In this document: in pieces, positions 28,228-57,757 of the stretch | Layout: every line of letters begins with the position of its first letter | How positions within the stretch are numbered: position 1 is the stretch's first letter | Assembly: GCA_018304545.1 (NCBI GenBank) | Contig: JAGVVZ010000002.1 | Location: 16,999 to 80,998 of the forward strand | Length of the DNA: 64,000 nucleotides | Direction: 5' to 3' | DNA from: Candidatus Aenigmatarchaeota archaeon | GTDB taxonomy: Archaea; Aenigmatarchaeota; Aenigmatarchaeia; CG10238-14 | Notes under the pieces: model-generated | Databases searched by the model: none | The model's input: the letters and a program-made list of their open reading frames with translations, nothing else | Told to the model about the DNA's origin: nothing | Position numbers and translations under genes: made by a program

Positions 28228-28499
28228 TTTTGACTACCCTCTATTGCTAATATGCTGACATTGAAAGGTTTACCACAAATAACACCCAAATCAACGTTGC
28301 TCCCTAGAAAGTTTTTAACTTCAATTTTAGCTAATTTAGCATTGTGTTCCACTATATTTCTTCGTTCTTTTGGAATATTATTAGCCATGACTATCATAGA
28401 TGGATGTTCGGTTTTGATCGATTTTATCACTTTCTCATAACCTAAAACAACTTCTTTCTTTTTAATCTTGTCCTGTATTATTTTTGCTAAATCCATCAT
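28224..28499 (-). CDS. rpl30e: 50S ribosomal protein L30e
   Basis: 91 aa, L7Ae/L30e-fold; canonical position after rpoA''. Confidence 0.8.
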   Translation of the reverse strand: MMDLAKIIQDKIKKKEVVLGYEKVIKSIKTEHPSMIVMANNIPKERRNIVEHNAKLAKIEVKNFLGSNVDLGVICGKPFNVSILAIEGSQK

Positions 28500-29641
28500 T
28501 CTTCACCAATTTTAGCTACTAATTCAAACATTCCTGTACCTACTGGTATTTGTTTATTTATCATAACATTATCAAATATACCTTCAAATGTGTCGATTTC
28601 TCCTCTAACTGATGCCTTTACTAAATGTTTTACGGTTTCTTCAAAACCCGCACGAGTTAAAACTGACGTGTGAGTTCCAGCAATTCCATATCTACCAACA
28701 GCTCTAATTTCACCTGTTAATGTCATTATATCAGCAACAAGCATAATGTGTCTTTGATCTATATCAAGACCTTGTTGTTCTAGTGTATCTCTAATTTCTC
28801 TCATCAAAGCTGTTCTTGCGGCCTCAATGCCAAGAAATTTAGCTATTTCATGAATATTATTCGTATAACATTTTCTGATATCAAATTCTTCCATTAGCAA
28901 TATTTTTTCAAAATTCGAGCCTAATGTTTTTATTATCCAATCTTTCCCTTCTTTTACAAGAACCGAATTTTTAATACCCTGTAAACCTGAAACATGAAGT
29001 GCCAAGATTTTCTTTTTCAATTTCTCTAATTCTTTTATTGTTATTTCTCCTTCTTTTGGTTCTATATCTATTCTTTCTCCATTTAATTTTATTGTGTAAT
29101 TTTTGAATGTTTTTTCCAATTTTTCCATCGTTTCTTTTTTTTCTGATTGTTTTATCTTCTTCAACTCAATTTTTATTTTTTTATTTGTCAAATCAACAGA
29201 AATCGTATTGGAAAAATTTCTCATTTTCTTTTCTCTTAATTGCTTTGCGATTTCTTCACCGTCTTCCTTTGTATTAAATTTAGATTTTAGATACAAAGTC
29301 ATCATGGGTGTAGTTGGTTCCTTTCTAGCATCAAAAATTTCAATTAATCTCGGTAAACCCAAAGTAATCTGTAAACCTGCAGATCCAGCAAAGTGATATG
29401 TTCTCATTGTCATTTGAGTCGCTGGTTCAGAAATAGACTGAGCGGAAATTATACCTAAAGCTTCGCCCGGCTCAAAACTGCTTTTCATATATTCTTTTTT
29501 AACAGAATTAATTAATTTTTCTTTTTGTTGTTCGTTAAGTTTTCTATCTTTACTAACCTTGTCTATCTCTTCCCATATCAACTGAGGCAAATCAACATTA
29601 TCTAAATAACTCATTTGCAATTCTTTCGACATTGATTCCAC
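28496..29641 (-). CDS. rpoA2: DNA-directed RNA polymerase subunit A''
   Basis: 381 aa, C-terminal portion of the largest subunit (..FEPGEALGIISAQSISEPATQMTMRTYHFAG..). Start overlaps the end of the upstream ORF; the true start may be one of the downstream ATGs. Confidence 0.9.
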   Translation of the reverse strand: MESMSKELQMSYLDNVDLPQLIWEEIDKVSKDRKLNEQQKEKLINSVKKEYMKSSFEPGEALGIISAQSISEPATQMTMRTYHFAGSAGLQITLGLPRLIEIFDARKEPTTPMMTLYLKSKFNTKEDGEEIAKQLREKKMRNFSNTISVDLTNKKIKIELKKIKQSEKKETMEKLEKTFKNYTIKLNGERIDIEPKEGEITIKELEKLKKKILALHVSGLQGIKNSVLVKEGKDWIIKTLGSNFEKILLMEEFDIRKCYTNNIHEIAKFLGIEAARTALMREIRDTLEQQGLDIDQRHIMLVADIMTLTGEIRAVGRYGIAGTHTSVLTRAGFEETVKHLVKASVRGEIDTFEGIFDNVMINKQIPVGTGMFELVAKIGEE

Positions 29642-32600
29642 CTCTTTGCATTTTTGATGGGTCTAACCCATCTTCACCTGGTATGAATTGAATTATTTTC
29701 TTTGTACAATCTCTAACAGTACCATCATATTCAACCTTTAAATCTTTTAGTGCACCTATGAGCCTTCTTTCCAAATAACCACTATGTCTAGTTTTCAATG
29801 ACTTATCCATTAAACCTTCTCTACTATTCATTGCATCAAAGAAAAATTCAAATGGTGATAGACCGTTTTTATATCCGTGCCTTACGAACCCTTTCGATTC
29901 TAAGCTTAAATCACCTTTTCTGAAATGAGAAAATGTTCTTTTATAATATCCTATTTTAATTCTTTCACCTTTAACAGTTTCTTGACCAATACAAGCAGCA
30001 CACTGAACTAAATTAATAATACTGCCTTTTGATCCACTTTTAGCCATTATTATAGTAGAATTTTCAGGAACTGATTTTCCGACAACTTCACTAATTTCGT
30101 TCAACAATTCAGCCGTTCTTTTCTTGATTGAAATTTCTAAGCTCTCTCTCGGCGTTCTTCCTATAACATCTAGTATTTTATTCTTTTTAAAATCTTGGAT
30201 TGTTTTATCAACCTCTTTTTGAACATCTTCAATCATTTGATTAATTTTCTCTCTTATTTTAGGATTTAAATCATGATCCGCGATAGATACGGTAAACCCA
30301 TATTTCATTAAAACCTCGAGAGATAATCTAGTTATATCGAATAAAAATTTCCTTGTAACTTCATATCCGTATCTTCTTTCTAATTCGTCTAATATTTTAC
30401 CCTTAAACGCACCTATCCCATTTTCATCAATAATACCAGACAAAAGTTTACCATTTTTTATAACAACATCCATATCCGCAACTTTGTATTCTAAATTGAA
30501 GTTTTTCGGCAAAAATAAACTGAAAATTTCTTTCCCAGTTAATTCTTTTTTATCTGGTATTTCAACATCTAAATCATATGCTCTAATTAAATTAACAGCA
30601 TCTTCCCTGTTCAACACGAACTTGTTTGTTAGGATAAAAATACCTGTTATGTGATCGTTTATTGCGCCTATAATAGGACCACTAAATCTTGGACTTCTAA
30701 TTTGTGTTATTGAATTAGTTAATAATTTAGTTTCTGTTTGTGCTTCTTTTGTTTGCGGCACATGCAAATTCATTTCATCTCCATCAAAATCAGCATTATA
30801 TGACGGAGCTACGACCAAATTAAATCTAAACGTATTATAGGGCATCACTCTCATTTTATGACCCATCATACTCATTCTATGCAATGATGGTTGTCTATTA
30901 AATACTGACCAATCTCCATCTTCGATTTGCTTTTCCACAATAAAACCTGATGCCAATTCATCAGCTATATCTTTCTTATTTAACTCTGTCACCTTTTTCC
31001 TTCTACCATCAGGCCTATTAACATAATTTATTGTGGGCCACTCCGGACATCTCGTTATCAATTCTTTTATTTTTTTGATGTTCCTTTCATTTACTACAAC
31101 AGGCAACGTTAATTCCTCTGCCACAAATCTCGGTATGCCAACTTCATTAATATCAAGCATCGGATCAGGACTTATGACGGTTCTTGCTGAATAATTAACC
31201 CTTTTACCAATTAAATTGCTTCTGAATCTTCCTTCCTTTGTTTTTAATCTCTGTGCCAAAGTTTTTAATATTCTACCAGATCTGTGTCTCGCTGGAGGAA
31301 CTCCAGAAATCTCATTATTCATGTATGTTGCTATATGATATTGTAATAACTCCCAAAGATCTTGAATAATAAAATCTGGTGCGCCTAAATCACTGTTTTC
31401 TCTTAATCTTTTGTTTATTCTAACTATATCGACCAATTTGTGTGTTAGATCATCTTCAGACCTTTCACCTGTTTCTAAAGTAATAGAAGATCTAACAGTT
31501 ACAGGAGGCACAGGCAGCAATGATATTATCAAATATTCGGGCCTTGTTCCCCTTATACCTAAATATAATAAATCCTCGTTTGGTATTCTTTCTAACCATT
31601 CTCTCGTTTCAACAGGGGTTAATAATGTGCTATCCTCTTGGAAGCTTGTTGGTTTGACAAATTTAATTTTCTTTTGTTTTTCTTTACAATGGGGACACGT
31701 GCTTTTGACTAAATGTTTAAGTTTTTTAACTGATATTCTTCCTGTTGCTTTGTTTTTCTCCGTATCTTCCTTTGTTATAAGTATTTTTCCACATTTTCTA
31801 CATGTAGATTTTAATATATTGTAAATAAGTTTCGAATAATTTACATGAACAATAGGCTTAGTCAATTCCAAATAACCGAAGTGGCCCTTGCAATCACCGA
31901 CAGTTCCACCGCAAGATCTACATCTTAATCCTGGATCAATAACACCTAATCTGGGATCCATAAGTCCTCCTTCTACAGGATATCCTTCCTGATCATATAA
32001 TTCTGTTTTGCTAATTTTACATTGAGAAATTTTCTTCACTAAATCTGGGTTTAAAACGCTAAATAAAATTTTATCTATTGTGTTCATTTCTTCATTCACA
32101 GTTATTTTAGGATATATTAGCATACTTCTTAATTCGTCCAAAAGAAGTTTGAAGGCATAAGACATTTCGACATCGATGATTTTGGTTCCTCCGCAAACAG
32201 AGCAATACTTTTTGTTTTTTATTCTATCATAAATTGCGTCCATACCACAGTCTTTGCATATCGGTATATAGGTTTTATCGGAATCAAATCTCTCTTTTAA
32301 TAATAACGATGCACCATGCGCTATTAAACAATCTTTTTCCATTTCGCCTAACCTAAGACCGCCCATTTTTGATTTTCCTTCTGTAGGTTGTTTTGTTAGC
32401 AAAGTAACAGGACCTTTCGATCTTGCGTAAATTTTATTTGAAACTAGGTGATCGAGTTTCTGATAATAAATATTCCCGATATAGATTTTGTTGTCAAACT
32501 GTTTTCCTGTTCTTCCGTCAAACATCACTTCTGTGCCATCATTATTGAAGTTATACGATTCCAATTTTTTCCTTAGTTCAGATTCAGGAATTGAATGGAA

Positions 32601-33881
32601 TGCGGGACTGCTAATTCTTTCTCCTTGTAAAGAAGCGACTTTCCCACTTAAAATTTCCAAAAGTTGTCCTATTGTCATTCTAGATGGTATACCATGAGGA
32701 TTAAAAATAATATCAGGAACAACGCCATCTTCAGTAAACGGTAAATCTTCTTGCGGAACAGTTAAGCCTATTACACCTTTTTGACCATGTCTACTGGCAA
32801 ATTTATCTCCTAGTTCAGGTTTTTTCAAATCTCTAATTAATGACTTAACTAATTTATTTCCTTCTCCGCTTTCTGTTATGAATACTCTATCTACTATACC
32901 TTCTTCTCCGTGTCTTATTTTGATAGAGGTTTCTCGAATATTTTCAAGTCCAGTAATAAATTGATCTAATCCTCCCAGAAATCTTAAAGGCGAAACTTTA
33001 GAAATAATTATATCTTCAGATTTCAAAGAAGTTTCTGGATTGGCGATGCCGTCTTCAGATAAGTGTTTATATGAATCCTCGCCTATATATCCCCTAACTC
33101 CTGGTTCAGGTATACCTATCACGTCTTCTTGACCGCCAAGATATCGTTTTTCTTCTGCTTCGTAGGCTCTAAACAAATATGACCAGAACATTCCCCTTTC
33201 TATAGACGATTTATTAATTACTATCGAATCCTCCATATTATATCCCATAAATGGCATAACAGCTAAAGTAACATTTTGACCACCGGGATGATTTTCATCA
33301 CTGACAATTTCATTCATATGAGTTTTAACCAGAGGAACCTGTGGATAAACAAGAATATTTGATTTAGTATCAGTTCTAATCGGAAAATTCAAAGAGTATA
33401 AACCTATGGATTGCCCTATCATTTTTCCTCCAAAATTTACTCTATCACCTCGATCGAACTCAGCAAAAGGAACTAAAGACGTGGCTAAACCCAAAATTAT
33501 TGTAGGATCCAATTCTAGATGAGTATGTTCTGGTGTCAAATCTTCCGGTCTTAAAGCAACATATGCGTTTTCTTCTTCTTCTGTATCAAGATATTCAATT
33601 ACACCACTGTTTATCAAATCTGACCATTTCATTTTTCCTTTTTGAACATTTTCCACGTGTTCTTTAGTTAATTTGGGCTTGCCGTCTTCGACTACTATGA
33701 CAGGCCTTCTTGCACGACCAGCATCAGTAAGAACAGTTACAACATCTAAATGATCCAAATAAACAACATTTACTTGATTCGATAATTGACCTTTTCTTCT
33801 CATTTCTCTTATTGAATTCACTAATTTTTCAGGTGATTTCAAGTTGCCGATGTATCTCCCATCTACAAATAAATCTGTCAT
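29598..33881 (-). CDS. rpoB1-rpoA1: Single 1427-aa ORF encoding RNA polymerase subunit B' (residues ~1-597) fused in frame to subunit A' (from Met ~599)
   Basis: B' C-terminus ..CSVCGGTKIIDVEMSYAFKLLLDELRSMLIYPKITVNEE runs directly into the A' N-terminus MNTIDKILFSVLNPDLVKK...LMDPRLGVIDPGLRCRSCGG. The Met codon is at 32087-32085 (minus strand). There is no stop codon between the two. Confidence 0.8.
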   Translation of the reverse strand: MTDLFVDGRYIGNLKSPEKLVNSIREMRRKGQLSNQVNVVYLDHLDVVTVLTDAGRARRPVIVVEDGKPKLTKEHVENVQKGKMKWSDLINSGVIEYLDTEEEENAYVALRPEDLTPEHTHLELDPTIILGLATSLVPFAEFDRGDRVNFGGKMIGQSIGLYSLNFPIRTDTKSNILVYPQVPLVKTHMNEIVSDENHPGGQNVTLAVMPFMGYNMEDSIVINKSSIERGMFWSYLFRAYEAEEKRYLGGQEDVIGIPEPGVRGYIGEDSYKHLSEDGIANPETSLKSEDIIISKVSPLRFLGGLDQFITGLENIRETSIKIRHGEEGIVDRVFITESGEGNKLVKSLIRDLKKPELGDKFASRHGQKGVIGLTVPQEDLPFTEDGVVPDIIFNPHGIPSRMTIGQLLEILSGKVASLQGERISSPAFHSIPESELRKKLESYNFNNDGTEVMFDGRTGKQFDNKIYIGNIYYQKLDHLVSNKIYARSKGPVTLLTKQPTEGKSKMGGLRLGEMEKDCLIAHGASLLLKERFDSDKTYIPICKDCGMDAIYDRIKNKKYCSVCGGTKIIDVEMSYAFKLLLDELRSMLIYPKITVNEEMNTIDKILFSVLNPDLVKKISQCKISKTELYDQEGYPVEGGLMDPRLGVIDPGLRCRSCGGTVGDCKGHFGYLELTKPIVHVNYSKLIYNILKSTCRKCGKILITKEDTEKNKATGRISVKKLKHLVKSTCPHCKEKQKKIKFVKPTSFQEDSTLLTPVETREWLERIPNEDLLYLGIRGTRPEYLIISLLPVPPVTVRSSITLETGERSEDDLTHKLVDIVRINKRLRENSDLGAPDFIIQDLWELLQYHIATYMNNEISGVPPARHRSGRILKTLAQRLKTKEGRFRSNLIGKRVNYSARTVISPDPMLDINEVGIPRFVAEELTLPVVVNERNIKKIKELITRCPEWPTINYVNRPDGRRKKVTELNKKDIADELASGFIVEKQIEDGDWSVFNRQPSLHRMSMMGHKMRVMPYNTFRFNLVVAPSYNADFDGDEMNLHVPQTKEAQTETKLLTNSITQIRSPRFSGPIIGAINDHITGIFILTNKFVLNREDAVNLIRAYDLDVEIPDKKELTGKEIFSLFLPKNFNLEYKVADMDVVIKNGKLLSGIIDENGIGAFKGKILDELERRYGYEVTRKFLFDITRLSLEVLMKYGFTVSIADHDLNPKIREKINQMIEDVQKEVDKTIQDFKKNKILDVIGRTPRESLEISIKKRTAELLNEISEVVGKSVPENSTIIMAKSGSKGSIINLVQCAACIGQETVKGERIKIGYYKRTFSHFRKGDLSLESKGFVRHGYKNGLSPFEFFFDAMNSREGLMDKSLKTRHSGYLERRLIGALKDLKVEYDGTVRDCTKKIIQFIPGEDGLDPSKMQRGGINVERIANELFR

Positions 33882-35368
33882 ATTGAATTACCCATATTTT
33901 TTTCGATGATATTTTGTAAAATTTTTTGATCTTTTTCAGGTATACCTGTCGTGATTTGAGCCGCAACTGCTAAATATTTTCTTAATCCGATTGTTGCACC
34001 TTCTGGTGTTTGTGATGGATCAATTTTTCCCCAGTGTGATGGATAAAGTTCTCTGGCCTCGAAATGTTCTTGTGTCGATGTCAAAGGTGATAGGACATTT
34101 CTTGCATGCGACAGTGATTTTATAAAACTACTTCTTTCTAATCTTTGAGAAACGCCTGTTCTTCCTCCGACCCAAGATCCAATTGCTATGGCAGAAACTA
34201 TCTGATTGGTCAATACATTGGATTCAACTATAGAAGGTAATGGTGGGAATCTTCCTCTTTTGGTTAGTTTTTGGTAGTTATAAGTTATTCTCGTGATTAA
34301 ACCCCACTTACCAAGTAATATAGATCTGAAAAGAACTTCAAGTAAATCGCCTGATAATCTTAATCTTTTATTTGAGTAATGATCCAAATCGTCTTTAGGT
34401 ATTTTCTTCAAATGAAAACGTAAGATTTTTTCTATGGCTTTTGATAAAAATATTGCTTTATCAATTCTGTCTTTTTTTTCTTGACCTAAATGTGGGAGTA
34501 AGTACTTATCAAGTAATTTATTAACTCTATCTTGTCTATATTCTTTTTGCATTATTTTTAAGAAATCCGCAATTTCTTCTATCGCTTCTTTTGATGTCGC
34601 TGCTTCAGTTTCAAAAAGATTAGGGTAAAATTCTTGTTCGATTTCTGGATCTGCGGATACAGAAGTAATAATATCTCTGTCTGGTTCTAAACCGAGCGCC
34701 CTTAATAAGACTACTACTGATAATTTATTAACATTAGCAAAATTAATTTTTATTATACCATCTGTTTTTCTTTCGATTATATGTCTTTGTATATATCCAT
34801 CTTTTTCGGAATGAATTCTTGCAACTTCAGAAATATTGGGTGTTTTCGTTTTTTCCACCAAAATTCTGTTAGGTGCAATCTCTTCAATTAGAACTAAAAC
34901 TCTTTCTGTTCCATTTATAATAAAATAACCGCCCGGATCATCGGGATCTTCACCTGCCTGTATCAATTCTTGTTTATTCAATGTAGATAAGGGACAAATT
35001 TTAGATTTTAGCATAACAGGCAAATCGCCAAAATTGACTAGTATAGTTTCACTTTCGATGCCATTTAAAACCGGTGTCATCTCTACAAACATCGGAGCAG
35101 CATAAGTAAGATTTCTAACTCTGGCTTCAAGAGGATATGTGTTTCTAACCGATCCATCTGCCTCTTTTACAGATGGTGTGCCCAATTTAAATTTGCCTAG
35201 TTTAATCTTAAATTCGCCTAGATCTGGTACTTCTGGCTTAATTTCTTTTATTTGTCTTATGATGTTTGGAATTCTGTTTGTGATAAAATCATCATAGGAA
35301 TCAATTTGAAATTTAACAAAACCTTGTTCGTCTGAAAATGCCTTCAATAAATCAATATATTCTTTCAT
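33878..35368 (-). CDS. rpoB2: DNA-directed RNA polymerase subunit B''
   Basis: 496 aa N-terminal half of the B subunit; ATGA overlap with the downstream B' start. Confidence 0.9.
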   Translation of the reverse strand: MKEYIDLLKAFSDEQGFVKFQIDSYDDFITNRIPNIIRQIKEIKPEVPDLGEFKIKLGKFKLGTPSVKEADGSVRNTYPLEARVRNLTYAAPMFVEMTPVLNGIESETILVNFGDLPVMLKSKICPLSTLNKQELIQAGEDPDDPGGYFIINGTERVLVLIEEIAPNRILVEKTKTPNISEVARIHSEKDGYIQRHIIERKTDGIIKINFANVNKLSVVVLLRALGLEPDRDIITSVSADPEIEQEFYPNLFETEAATSKEAIEEIADFLKIMQKEYRQDRVNKLLDKYLLPHLGQEKKDRIDKAIFLSKAIEKILRFHLKKIPKDDLDHYSNKRLRLSGDLLEVLFRSILLGKWGLITRITYNYQKLTKRGRFPPLPSIVESNVLTNQIVSAIAIGSWVGGRTGVSQRLERSSFIKSLSHARNVLSPLTSTQEHFEARELYPSHWGKIDPSQTPEGATIGLRKYLAVAAQITTGIPEKDQKILQNIIEKNMGNSI

Positions 35369-35369
35369 T

Positions 35370-35615
35370 TCATCGCTCCACTACTAGTCTATAATAAGGT
35401 GTTTCTTTAGCAGTTACACTCTTTCTTGTTATTTTTATTAAATCTCCAGGCTTAGCATCTATCAATTGTATAGCGGGATCTGTGTGTGAGATGGTTGGAA
35501 ATTGGCTCAATTTTTTTATTTTGTATTTTTCAATCACTTCTTGTTTTTCCACATCAGATAAAATAATATGCTGTGGTACAAGTTCGTGATCCAGTATATT
35601 CACTTTTGGTTTCAA
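35370..35615 (-). CDS. rpoH: DNA-directed RNA polymerase subunit H
   Basis: 81 aa Rpb5-like; apparent TTG start (minus-strand TTG AAA CCA AAA GTG...). Confidence 0.8.
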   Translation of the reverse strand: MKPKVNILDHELVPQHIILSDVEKQEVIEKYKIKKLSQFPTISHTDPAIQLIDAKPGDLIKITRKSVTAKETPYYRLVVER

Positions 35616-35820: not shown

Positions 35821-35938
35821 GAGTTGGCAACGTCCTGAACTTCCCACCCAAAGGCAGTACAACTCAGATCACCGAAAAACTTAACTTCCGTGTTCGAAAT
35901 GGGAACGGGTGTTTCCTTTTCGTTTTGGTCGCCAACTC
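35821..35938 (-). rRNA. rrf: 5S ribosomal RNA (standalone, not linked to 16S/23S in this window)
   Basis: Minus-strand sequence GAGTTGGCGACC...CACCCGTTCCCATTTCGAACACGGAAGTTAAG...GTTGCCAACTC. It carries the universally conserved 5S loop-C/helix-III block and complementary termini (helix I). Confidence 0.85.
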
Positions 35939-36057: not shown

Positions 36058-36173
36058 TCCCCCCGGCCGGAGTTGAACCAGCAACATCACGGTATCTATT
36101 GAGCCCATGCTGGTGACAAACACATAATGTGCTCGTCTACAGCCGTGCGCTCTGCCAGTTGAGCTACAGGGGG
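36058..36173 (-). tRNA. tRNA-Tyr(GTA) with a ~43-nt canonical (37/38) intron
   Basis: CCCCCTG-TA-GCTC-AACTGGCA-GAGC-G-CACGG-CTGTAG[intron acgagcac...caatagat]A-CCGTG-ATGTT-GCTGG-TTCAACT-CCGGC-CGGGGGG-A; acceptor has one G-U pair. Confidence 0.8.
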
Positions 36174-36208: not shown

Positions 36209-37627
36209 TTAGTTCTTATTTTTATTAACTGGAACGATTCTAGAAGCAATTTTCCCTATTATACCGCCCTTACCTTCGTAAGTCATATGAACTTTTGGCA
36301 GTTTAAATCCACCTAAAATTTCCATTAATGGAATTATATTATAAGTTAAAACGACTTCTTCATAGGGTTTTATTTTATCTATATGCCATGTCAGTCTCGT
36401 CCCTTTTGTTGTCATCTTTATATCAGGTGTTAAAGTATCGAATCTTTTAACGACTTTAGCAACAGATGGAACTAAATCTCTTATAACAATATCTCTTATT
36501 TCTAAAGGAGATTTATTTTTGACGTGTAAAGATATCGTAACCTCCTTTCCGTGAGACAGTGGTGTTATATGTTTTTTATGGACTGTTGGTCTAAAGAATA
36601 TATGATATAAAATAAACATGAAAAACACAAGAATCAATGTGCCTATTATCGCATTTTGAAATCTAAGCTGGTATATAATTACTCTAGACTGATTTGGATC
36701 TAAATTTGAAATTCTCCATTCATAGATTACTCTATTATCTTTTATAGTTTCTGAACTTGGTTCTAATTCTGGATAAAAGAAATATTTCATAATAACTGGT
36801 ATGGATTCTGTAATAGTGTATTCCGAATCTGGTATATTCCCGTTGTTAGTCAACGTTATTGATACTACAATAAAAGTTATATTATAATCGATTTTTTTAG
36901 ATTTCACAAAATTTGTTTTTTCGTTCACTCTAAAGGTTGTCTCTTTATCATCTAAAACATTATTAAGTATGTCTTTGAGTTCAACTAGAATTTTAAACTC
37001 GCCATAACCATAGGGATTTAGTATTTGCAAATCATTTGTTATTGTTTTTGTACTATCTGGATCTATCCTAACTTGATCCTCAAATTTGTCAATTAATAAA
37101 TTGTTTTTAAAAATTTTTGTCGTAACTAAAACGTCTTTATATTTAACTTCATTAAGGTTTGTTATTACTGGTTGTATTATTAAAGTTTCTTCTGTATTCA
37201 AAACTTGCGAATTTGTTTTCAACTCTGATAAATATACTTCATATTCCCTCTTAAAGTTGAAGAGAAAATCCTTTGAATTAGATTTAGAAGTAGCGACAGA
37301 AGTGGCAGAAAACGTATAAAGAAACACTCCTTTTTGTGTATTTCTGGGGGGGTCCAATACGACTAAAAATTCTCCTATTTCGCCTGGCCCAAGCGTTACC
37401 GAATATTTATCAATTGACGTCCACTGATTTGGCCAAACCGAAACATAAAACGTATCTAAATTTTCCGCAGTATTCTTAATGGTCAGTTTAACGTTATTTT
37501 TCTGTCCCATATATATAGTGTAGATACTTTCGGGGCCACCTATTTCTATATCAGCATATACAAAATTTAGGATAAACATATAAGCAAACAAAATTCCTAA
37601 GAAATATTTTGTATTCAATATTACCAC
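36209..37627 (-). CDS. Signal-peptide-bearing surface protein with C-terminal TM anchor, hypothetical
   Basis: 472 aa: N-terminal signal peptide, long beta-rich extracellular region, TM helix (..IGTLILVFFMFILYHIFF..), ~120-aa cytoplasmic tail. Confidence 0.35.
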   Translation of the reverse strand: MVILNTKYFLGILFAYMFILNFVYADIEIGGPESIYTIYMGQKNNVKLTIKNTAENLDTFYVSVWPNQWTSIDKYSVTLGPGEIGEFLVVLDPPRNTQKGVFLYTFSATSVATSKSNSKDFLFNFKREYEVYLSELKTNSQVLNTEETLIIQPVITNLNEVKYKDVLVTTKIFKNNLLIDKFEDQVRIDPDSTKTITNDLQILNPYGYGEFKILVELKDILNNVLDDKETTFRVNEKTNFVKSKKIDYNITFIVVSITLTNNGNIPDSEYTITESIPVIMKYFFYPELEPSSETIKDNRVIYEWRISNLDPNQSRVIIYQLRFQNAIIGTLILVFFMFILYHIFFRPTVHKKHITPLSHGKEVTISLHVKNKSPLEIRDIVIRDLVPSVAKVVKRFDTLTPDIKMTTKGTRLTWHIDKIKPYEEVVLTYNIIPLMEILGGFKLPKVHMTYEGKGGIIGKIASRIVPVNKNKN

Positions 37628-44495: not shown

Positions 44496-44585
44496 AGCCC
44501 GGTAGTGTAGCGGTCAAGCACACTCTTTTGAGGCTTAAAGTGGGCTTTGGACCCATTAACTCAGGTTCGAATCCTGACCGGGCTA
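44496..44585 (+). tRNA. tRNA-Gln(TTG) with a ~17-nt insertion between position 26 and the anticodon stem (non-canonical intron)
   Basis: AGCCCGG-TA-GTGT-AGCGGTCAA-GCAC-A-[ctcttttgaggcttaaa]-GTGGG-CTTTGGA-CCCAT-TAAC-TCAGG-TTCGAAT-CCTGA-CCGGGCT-A. Confidence 0.65.
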
Positions 44586-57494: not shown

Positions 57495-57613
57495 GCGGGA
57501 GTTGCCAAGCCTGGTCAACGGCGCAGGACTGATTAACTCAGTGTGAGACTTAAGTTGACTATAGGATATCCTGTCCCTTAGTGGGTTCGCAGGTTCGAAT
57601 CCTGCCTCCCGCA
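57495..57613 (+). tRNA. Type II (long variable arm) tRNA, Leu-like D-arm, with a ~33-nt insertion in the anticodon arm; anticodon not resolved
   Basis: GCGGGAG-TT-GCC-AAGCCTGGTCAAC-GGC-G-CAGGA-[ctgattaact...ataggata]-TCCTG-TCCCTTAGTGGGTTC-GCAGG-TTCGAAT-CCTGC-CTCCCGC-A. Simple exon joins give GAT/GAA/GGA loops with U37, so splice sites are probably non-canonical. Confidence 0.55.
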
Positions 57614-57658: not shown

Positions 57659-57757
57659 GCAGGGGTACCTGAGTTTGGTTAAAAGGGTAGGGTTCAGGAC
57701 AACGGTGGAAGGCCCTATGGTTTAGTACCTTCGAGAGTTCGAATCTCTCCTCCTGCA
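57659..57757 (+). tRNA. tRNA-Leu(CAG), type II, with a 13-nt intron at or next to position 37/38-38/39
   Basis: GCAGGGG-TA-CCT-GAGTTTGGTTAAA-AGG-G-TAGGG-TTCAGGA[caacggtggaagg]-CCCTA-TGGTTTAGTACCTTC-GAGAG-TTCGAAT-CTCTC-CTCCTGC-A. Mature loop TTCAGGA = U33, CAG, G37, A38. Confidence 0.65.

Follow-up and report, generated by a model that had tools for sequence, protein, structure and literature searches.

The window analyzed here, a 64,000-nucleotide (nt) stretch of contig JAGVVZ010000002.1 from Candidatus Aenigmatarchaeota (DPANN), carries an RNA polymerase operon in which the genes for subunits B' (rpoB') and A' (rpoA') are read as a single open reading frame (ORF) on the minus strand. All positions given below are window coordinates. 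The original prediction had described this frame as 1427 amino acids (aa) without a stop codon, with GAA (Glu598) at 32090-32088 followed by a Met codon at 32087-32085 (residue 599), and had raised both a genuine fusion and a sequencing or assembly error as explanations. The ORF listing and the translation agree with that description. The frame comprises the following features.

29598..33881, minus strand: fused rpoB'-rpoA' (Rpo2C-Rpo1N) ORF with ATG start, 1427 aa, about 162 kDa (ORF listing, translation, Pfam)
32088..33881, minus strand: B' (Rpo2C) part, aa 1-598, Rpb2 domains 4-7 including the C-terminal zinc-ribbon clamp element (Pfam, alignment to solved B chains)
29601..32087, minus strand: A' (Rpo1N) part, aa 599-1427, Rpb1 domains 1-5 (of domain 5, the N-terminal part) with the catalytic motif NADFDGD (Pfam, alignment, translation)
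32079..32087, minus strand: junction codons ATG-AAC-ACA (Met599-Asn600-Thr601), putatively the former stop, 3-nt spacer and former ATG of A' (alignment with split relatives)

The B' part contains Rpb2 domains 4, 5, 6 and 7 in this order (aa 5-594, E-values down to 3e-126) and ends in the cysteine zinc-ribbon clamp element, the CxxC...CxxC cysteines of which are invariant in alignment A1. In solved archaeal B chains, its match spans residues ~519-1116 and thereby extends to the B C-terminus. The A' part contains Rpb1 domains 1-4 and the start of domain 5 (Rpb1_1/2/3/4/5 at aa 600-1405) as well as NADFDGD, with YNADFDGDEMNLH in the translation, and matches residues 6-871 of solved A' chains. The Pfam matches on both sides lie well over the gathering scores, and Rpb2_7 and Rpb1_1 are separated by a gap of ~5 residues. 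Across the junction, the translation reads ...YAFKLLLDELRSMLIYPKITVNEE-MNTIDKILF... without a stop (over a longer span, ...MSYAFKLLLDELRSMLIYPKITVNEE-MNTIDKILFSVLNPD..., likewise uninterrupted), and the tryptic peptide crossing it is ITVNEEMNTIDK. A single frame runs from the C-terminus of the second-largest subunit into the N-terminus of the largest. The GC content of the window is 28-35%. In DNA of 30-34% GC, an open frame of 4.3 kb is not a product of chance, and doubt is confined to one junction codon.

A real stop between B' and A' could have been lost from the record by a sequencing or assembly error: a single base change would suffice, and some close relatives do carry an in-frame stop at the exact junction position. 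Homologues of the whole protein were collected from NCBI, JGI, ENA and Logan assemblies (at least 120 clusters among the matches listed, 52-98% identity), and GTDB species-representative genomes were scanned with tblastn, yielding 80 loci. Among the matches listed, the junction is continuous in all 120 best homologues, each of which carries both Rpb2 and Rpb1 domains, and the named clusters are mostly labelled Candidatus Aenigmatarchaeota. The exact protein of the window is present on three ENA contigs, a 98% identical copy with identical junction codons occurs in another metagenome-assembled genome (MAG), and clusters formed at 90% identity can contain a dozen full-length copies from separate metagenomes. 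MAGs of uncultured archaea are nearest to the window, followed by MAGs with the label Aenigmatarchaeota, which places it in this DPANN phylum. The comparison with junctions in related genomes, which the original prediction had suggested, was thus carried out and revealed the same open frame in more than 120 clusters and in 42 of the 80 GTDB loci, the closed 875-kb chromosome CP066684.1 being one of these 42. The junction is conserved in related genomes rather than being a one-off, and the window's own clade (13 clusters) is uniformly fused. Moreover, the former start codon and Shine-Dalgarno-like sequence of A' have decayed, as detailed below, and an error would not cause such decay. The open junction in independent assemblies and the decayed start signals together rule out a lost stop, an explanation to which we accord virtually no probability. 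Domain order and conservation over many independent assemblies instead argue that the open junction represents a real, vertically inherited B'-A' gene fusion, with a probability that we put at roughly 0.9.

The likely origin of the junction can be read from relatives in which the two genes are split. In locus L039, the sequence is ...AAA GAG GAA TAG AAA ATG ATA GAT AAG (KEE, stop, K, MIDK), while loci L013, L016 and L030 read ...GAG GTA TGA AAG/AAA ATG and loci L035, L048 and L054 read ...GGT GAA TAA ATG. Three further split relatives, retrieved via the A' protein alone, read ...GAG GAG TAG gc ATG ATA GAC AAG, ...GAG GAT TAA t ATG and ...GAG GAA TAA tt ATG. The split genes are packed 0-3 nt apart and have a GAGG-type motif in the last B' codons; where B' ends in ...KEE, these codons (AAAGAGGA) resemble a Shine-Dalgarno site for A'. 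The window junction reads ...AAT GAA GAA ATG AAC ACA ATA GAT AAA, with the same length from YPK to IDK as in L039, and standalone A' proteins start with MIDK or MLDK opposite TIDK of the window. By this alignment, ATG (Met599) would occupy the place of the former stop, AAC that of the spacer and ACA (Thr601) that of the former start. Met599, at which the original prediction placed the A' N-terminus, is therefore probably not the ancestral A' start. Nor was the former stop at GAA (32090-32088), which the original prediction had noted to be one substitution from TAA; the stop corresponds to the ATG codon itself, a position at which the window's own fused clade has TTG, TTA, CTC or ATG. Both TTG and TTA are one substitution away from a stop codon (TAG and TAA, respectively).

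Little is left of the signals required for separate initiation of A'. In the window, the GAGG motif has decayed to TGAAGAA. Eight other gene starts of the operon were checked, and a GGTG/GAGG-type motif lies upstream of seven; Met599 is preceded by GTGA only. A separate A' gene with its own start is not found at this locus: there is no stop upstream of A', the ancestral start now reads ACA, and Met599 has no GGTG/GAGG motif upstream. With its start signals decayed in this way, A' has lost separate initiation, and the fused state must be an old one. In the ancestor, B' and A' would have been translationally coupled, the last B' codons (K-E-E) serving as a Shine-Dalgarno-like site for A' and the B' stop being followed, after 0-3 nt, by the A' ATG. 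Loss of the stop while this arrangement was in frame would have joined the two frames, after which the former A' start and its Shine-Dalgarno-like site would have decayed, leaving no stand-alone A' synthesis.

The fusion also appears compatible with the architecture of the enzyme. In alignments with solved archaeal structures, the B chains stop at query aa 596-600 and the A' chains set in at query aa 601-603 with their residue 5-7, so that there is effectively no linker. A comparable connection exists in an engineered Pyrococcus furiosus clamp (PDB 3QQC, chain A), composed of B residues 1053-1115, a short linker, A' residues 3-318, a linker and A'' residues 334-371, which folded, bound Spt4/5 and was crystallised (Martinez-Rucobo et al. 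2011, PMC3094117). The window protein aligns with 3QQC without gaps across the junction (ypkitvneemntidkilf against rpklnlseggkvigsief), with 49% identity over the clamp. The natural tether thus has the same length as a clamp-compatible engineered one, which makes the fusion structurally plausible. As in the recombinant clamp, where the linker is two residues long, the C-terminal residues of B are tethered straight to the N-terminus of A'; unlike that artificial construct of 436 residues with its appended A'' piece, the window encodes a complete B' plus A' as a natural essential gene. In a low-confidence AlphaFold model of aa 536-920 of the fusion, built from a 15-sequence alignment, the B' tail and the A' head form adjacent strands joined by the linker, which agrees with the clamp fold but does not go beyond that. 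In the assembled clamp, the C-terminus of B and the N-terminus of A' would already be neighbours, and a tether of ~3 residues would leave the fold unchanged. The fusion supports the view that the two termini form one structural unit, the clamp core.

Under this interpretation, one polypeptide of ~162 kDa would enter the enzyme, with B'' and A'' joining as separate chains. It would supply the hybrid-binding, wall and clamp elements of the B side together with the clamp core and active site of the A' side, and would enforce 1:1 synthesis and co-assembly of the clamp/active-centre halves from one chain. A continuous frame might nevertheless give separate subunits, through internal initiation at Met599, proteolysis of the linker or both. 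The evidence for the fusion comes from DNA sequence, the window and its nearest relatives have an ATG at the junction, and archaea are able to initiate without a strong Shine-Dalgarno site. Among the 120 best homologues, however, only the nearest relatives and two other lineages retain this Met, and elsewhere it is replaced by L, S, E, Y, T or G; even sister species of the same clade have Leu (CTC, TTG or TTA). The poor upstream context of Met599 compared with the other gene starts of the operon likewise argues against internal initiation. Furthermore, B' has no stop and could be released only by cleavage, for which a linker of ~3 residues, forming a turn between two strands in the low-confidence model, would be a poor substrate. 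We therefore consider the production of separate subunits unlikely. Far less probable still, and given hardly any credence, is programmed recoding, in which a frameshift near the junction would end B' at a TGA in the +1 frame (GTGAATG) and the fused frame would be a minor product. Out-of-frame TGA triplets are indeed present in the junction (G TGA ATG AAG AAA TGA), but AT-rich DNA should contain such triplets by chance, and they are not conserved among fused relatives. Neither a slippery site nor a conserved structure was seen at the junction, and A' would still have no initiation signal if a frameshift ended B'. A single B'-A' chain remains the preferred product. To our knowledge, these organisms have no cultured representative.

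The distribution of the fusion was evaluated by a second search with the A' part only, which has no preference for fused proteins. Among the matches listed, it gave 120 clusters (identity of at least 61%), of which ~29 are fused and ~88 are true standalone A' proteins. The 13 clusters nearest to the window are all fused, except for one fragment starting past the junction, and the split form closest to the window (P0275) shares 72-73% identity with it. Fitch parsimony on a neighbour-joining tree of 219 A' sequences, representatives of 90%-identity clusters, gave 25 changes between the fused and the split state, or about 22 once three mislabelled sequences were set right. In a tree-free test, 30 fused groups were each nearer to some split sequence than to the fused sequences of other groups: identities reach 85-90% for fused-split pairs, compared with ~60-65% between different fused groups. 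The interleaving of fused and split forms among close relatives implies that the junction has flipped many times, in many independent events. The fusion is probably close to neutral in its effect on fitness, which would explain the repeated flipping within the phylum. The starting assumption of the original prediction, that archaeal rpoB' and rpoA' are separate adjacent genes, holds as the archaeal rule and fails within Aenigmatarchaeota, in which fusion is common and recurs.

Fusion in this phylum extends to undivided B subunits. Two further clades of Aenigmatarchaeota have proteins of 1909-1932 aa in which B, unsplit and with Rpb2 domains 1-7, continues into A' (loci L034, L036, L037, L040, L042, L046, L050, L052, L056 and L062; proteins P0074 and P0084-P0118). 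The phylum holds both B-split and B-unsplit lineages, and the unsplit B-A' chains have nearly the full Helicobacter-type architecture, only A'' being separate.

Several related architectures were noted alongside. In L051 (labelled Nanohalarchaeota) and L068, the A' frame continues for ~1200 aa beyond the junction, A' and A'' apparently being one gene; in L068, B is unsplit as well. A search among 50%-identity representatives additionally retrieved P0150 (2214 aa) and P0181 (1665 aa, named RPB2 by JGI), in which Rpb2 domains are followed by Rpb1 domains without the bacterial Rpb2_45 domain. Both are ~38% identical to the window and may be complete B-A fusions from another lineage. The RNA polymerase genes of L009/P0314 (labelled Heimdallarchaeota), L043/P0302 (labelled Micrarchaeota) and P0079 (labelled Woesearchaeota) fall inside the Aenigmatarchaeota clade, and these are probably mis-binned contigs or mislabelled MAGs.

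Annotation affects how the two states are counted. P0272 and P0279, counted above among the ~29 fused clusters, appeared to be standalone A' proteins and were rejected as such, being NCBI calls from an internal Met of fused ORFs (L006 and L008, respectively): A' is annotated as 841 or 860 aa, with a start inside the B' C-terminus (MGIYPK... and MLIYPK...), and the frame is continuous. Reliance on protein lengths alone therefore overcounts split forms. In NCBI records, the fused proteins bear the name "subunit A'" alone, and for at least two genomes they are annotated from an internal Met onwards, so that the fusion is not visible.

Some observations weigh against an old, recurrent and structurally accommodated single-chain fusion. 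The number of events is derived from neighbour-joining trees and from identities between sequences that represent 90%-identity clusters, and the parsimony count covers fusion and re-splitting alike, without direction. The examples of in-frame split genes come from the genome scan, which extends through in-frame stops and hence favours in-frame retrieval, and the three split relatives retrieved free of this bias all have out-of-frame spacers of 1-2 nt, indicating that some fusions also required an indel. For the same reason, an in-frame stop followed by ATG was rejected as the general ancestral layout, the shared frame in 80 of 80 loci reflecting retrieval bias; the layout does occur (e.g., in L039, L013, L035 and L053), although not universally. 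The AlphaFold model of the junction is weak, with a mean predicted local distance difference test score (pLDDT) of 57, a predicted template modelling score (pTM) of 0.48 and 3QQC as best PDB match at a template modelling score (TM) of 0.53, and given this low confidence the structural argument depends on the sequence alignment with 3QQC. Finally, the chain may be cleaved at the linker after translation.

A natural rpoB-rpoC (β-β') fusion is known from bacteria. According to the review PMC9696931, which cites Zakharova et al. (1998, 1999), it is specific to Helicobacter and Wolinella and arose from adjacent or overlapping genes. The parallel with Helicobacter drawn in the original prediction proves apt, as topology and gene order are the same: in both cases, the C-terminus of the second-largest subunit is joined to the N-terminus of the largest in one ORF. 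Three differences are apparent, however. In the window, the archaeal fragments B' and A' are joined while B'' and A'' remain separate, whereas two whole subunits are joined in the bacteria; the linker is essentially of zero length; and the fused state, fixed in one clade of bacteria, is polyphyletic here and flips among close relatives. Shared descent is not indicated, since the bacterial-type fusions recovered in our homologue search (P0223 and P0245) contain an Rpb2_45 domain and are only ~36-37% identical to the window. As judged from these comparisons, the archaeal fusion is an analogue of bacterial rpoBC rather than a member of it, with separate and repeated origins from split archaeal genes.

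Known changes in the large subunits of archaea comprise the B''/B' split, the A'/A'' split and a secondary A'-A'' re-fusion in Pacearchaeota, and have been termed rare (Da Cunha et al. 2017, PMC5484517). Like these events, the fusion described here concerns splitting and joining of large subunits in archaea, especially in fast-evolving DPANN lineages. In contrast, the pieces joined here belong to two subunits instead of one, and the change recurs within one phylum. No description of an archaeal B'-A' fusion was found in the literature searched, in which coverage of subscription journals is incomplete, and we lean slightly towards regarding the fusion as previously undescribed. With a similarly narrow preference, we propose that Aenigmatarchaeota possess an undescribed natural single-chain link between the cleft subunits that has been acquired or lost dozens of times and, in some lineages, takes the form of a B-A' chain of ~1911 aa.

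The two largest subunits form the active-centre cleft of the polymerase, and their division into polypeptides has served in archaea as a rare character that is informative for phylogeny. A cross-subunit B'-A' fusion constitutes a third kind of rearrangement, frequent and reversible within one DPANN phylum, implying that such characters can be highly homoplastic there. If the proposal is correct, the phylum amounts to a natural experiment in which the boundaries between subunits of multisubunit RNA polymerases prove evolutionarily arbitrary. A ready-made tethered scaffold would also become available for recombinant assembly of archaeal RNA polymerase and for structural work (reconstitution, cryo-electron microscopy).

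Apart from B' and A' lying in one frame, the operon has the usual archaeal RNA polymerase layout. The other subunit genes around the fusion are as follows.

35370..35615, minus strand: rpoH (Rpb5 C-terminal domain), first gene of the operon (Pfam)
33878..35368, minus strand: rpoB'' (Rpo2N), a separate gene, the stop of which overlaps the start of the fusion (ATGA) (ORF listing, Pfam)
28496..29641, minus strand: rpoA'' (Rpo1C), a separate gene, with a likely start ATG at 29632, preceded by AGAGGTGG (ORF listing, Pfam)

The rpoA'' gene shares 35-44 nt with the 3' end of the fusion ORF (29598-29641), or ~35 nt when counted from the likely start, and its strong AGAGGTGG motif lies inside the A' coding sequence. 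An overlap of 35-41 nt is also called in the split relatives L081-L083. Downstream of rpoA'' follow genes for L30e, a NusA-like KH protein, S12, S7, EF-2 and EF-1alpha.

A 5S rRNA gene is located just upstream of rpoH, and four tRNA matches of 90-119 nt were found in addition (5S and tRNA coordinates: 35822-35936 and 36058-36173 on the minus strand; 44496-44585, 57495-57613 and 57659-57757 on the plus strand). Their length suggests that the tRNA genes probably contain introns, and ARAGORN called one of the four. A 472-aa ORF with a DUF11 repeat (36209-37627, minus strand) separates the tRNA/5S region from a nitroreductase-family gene.

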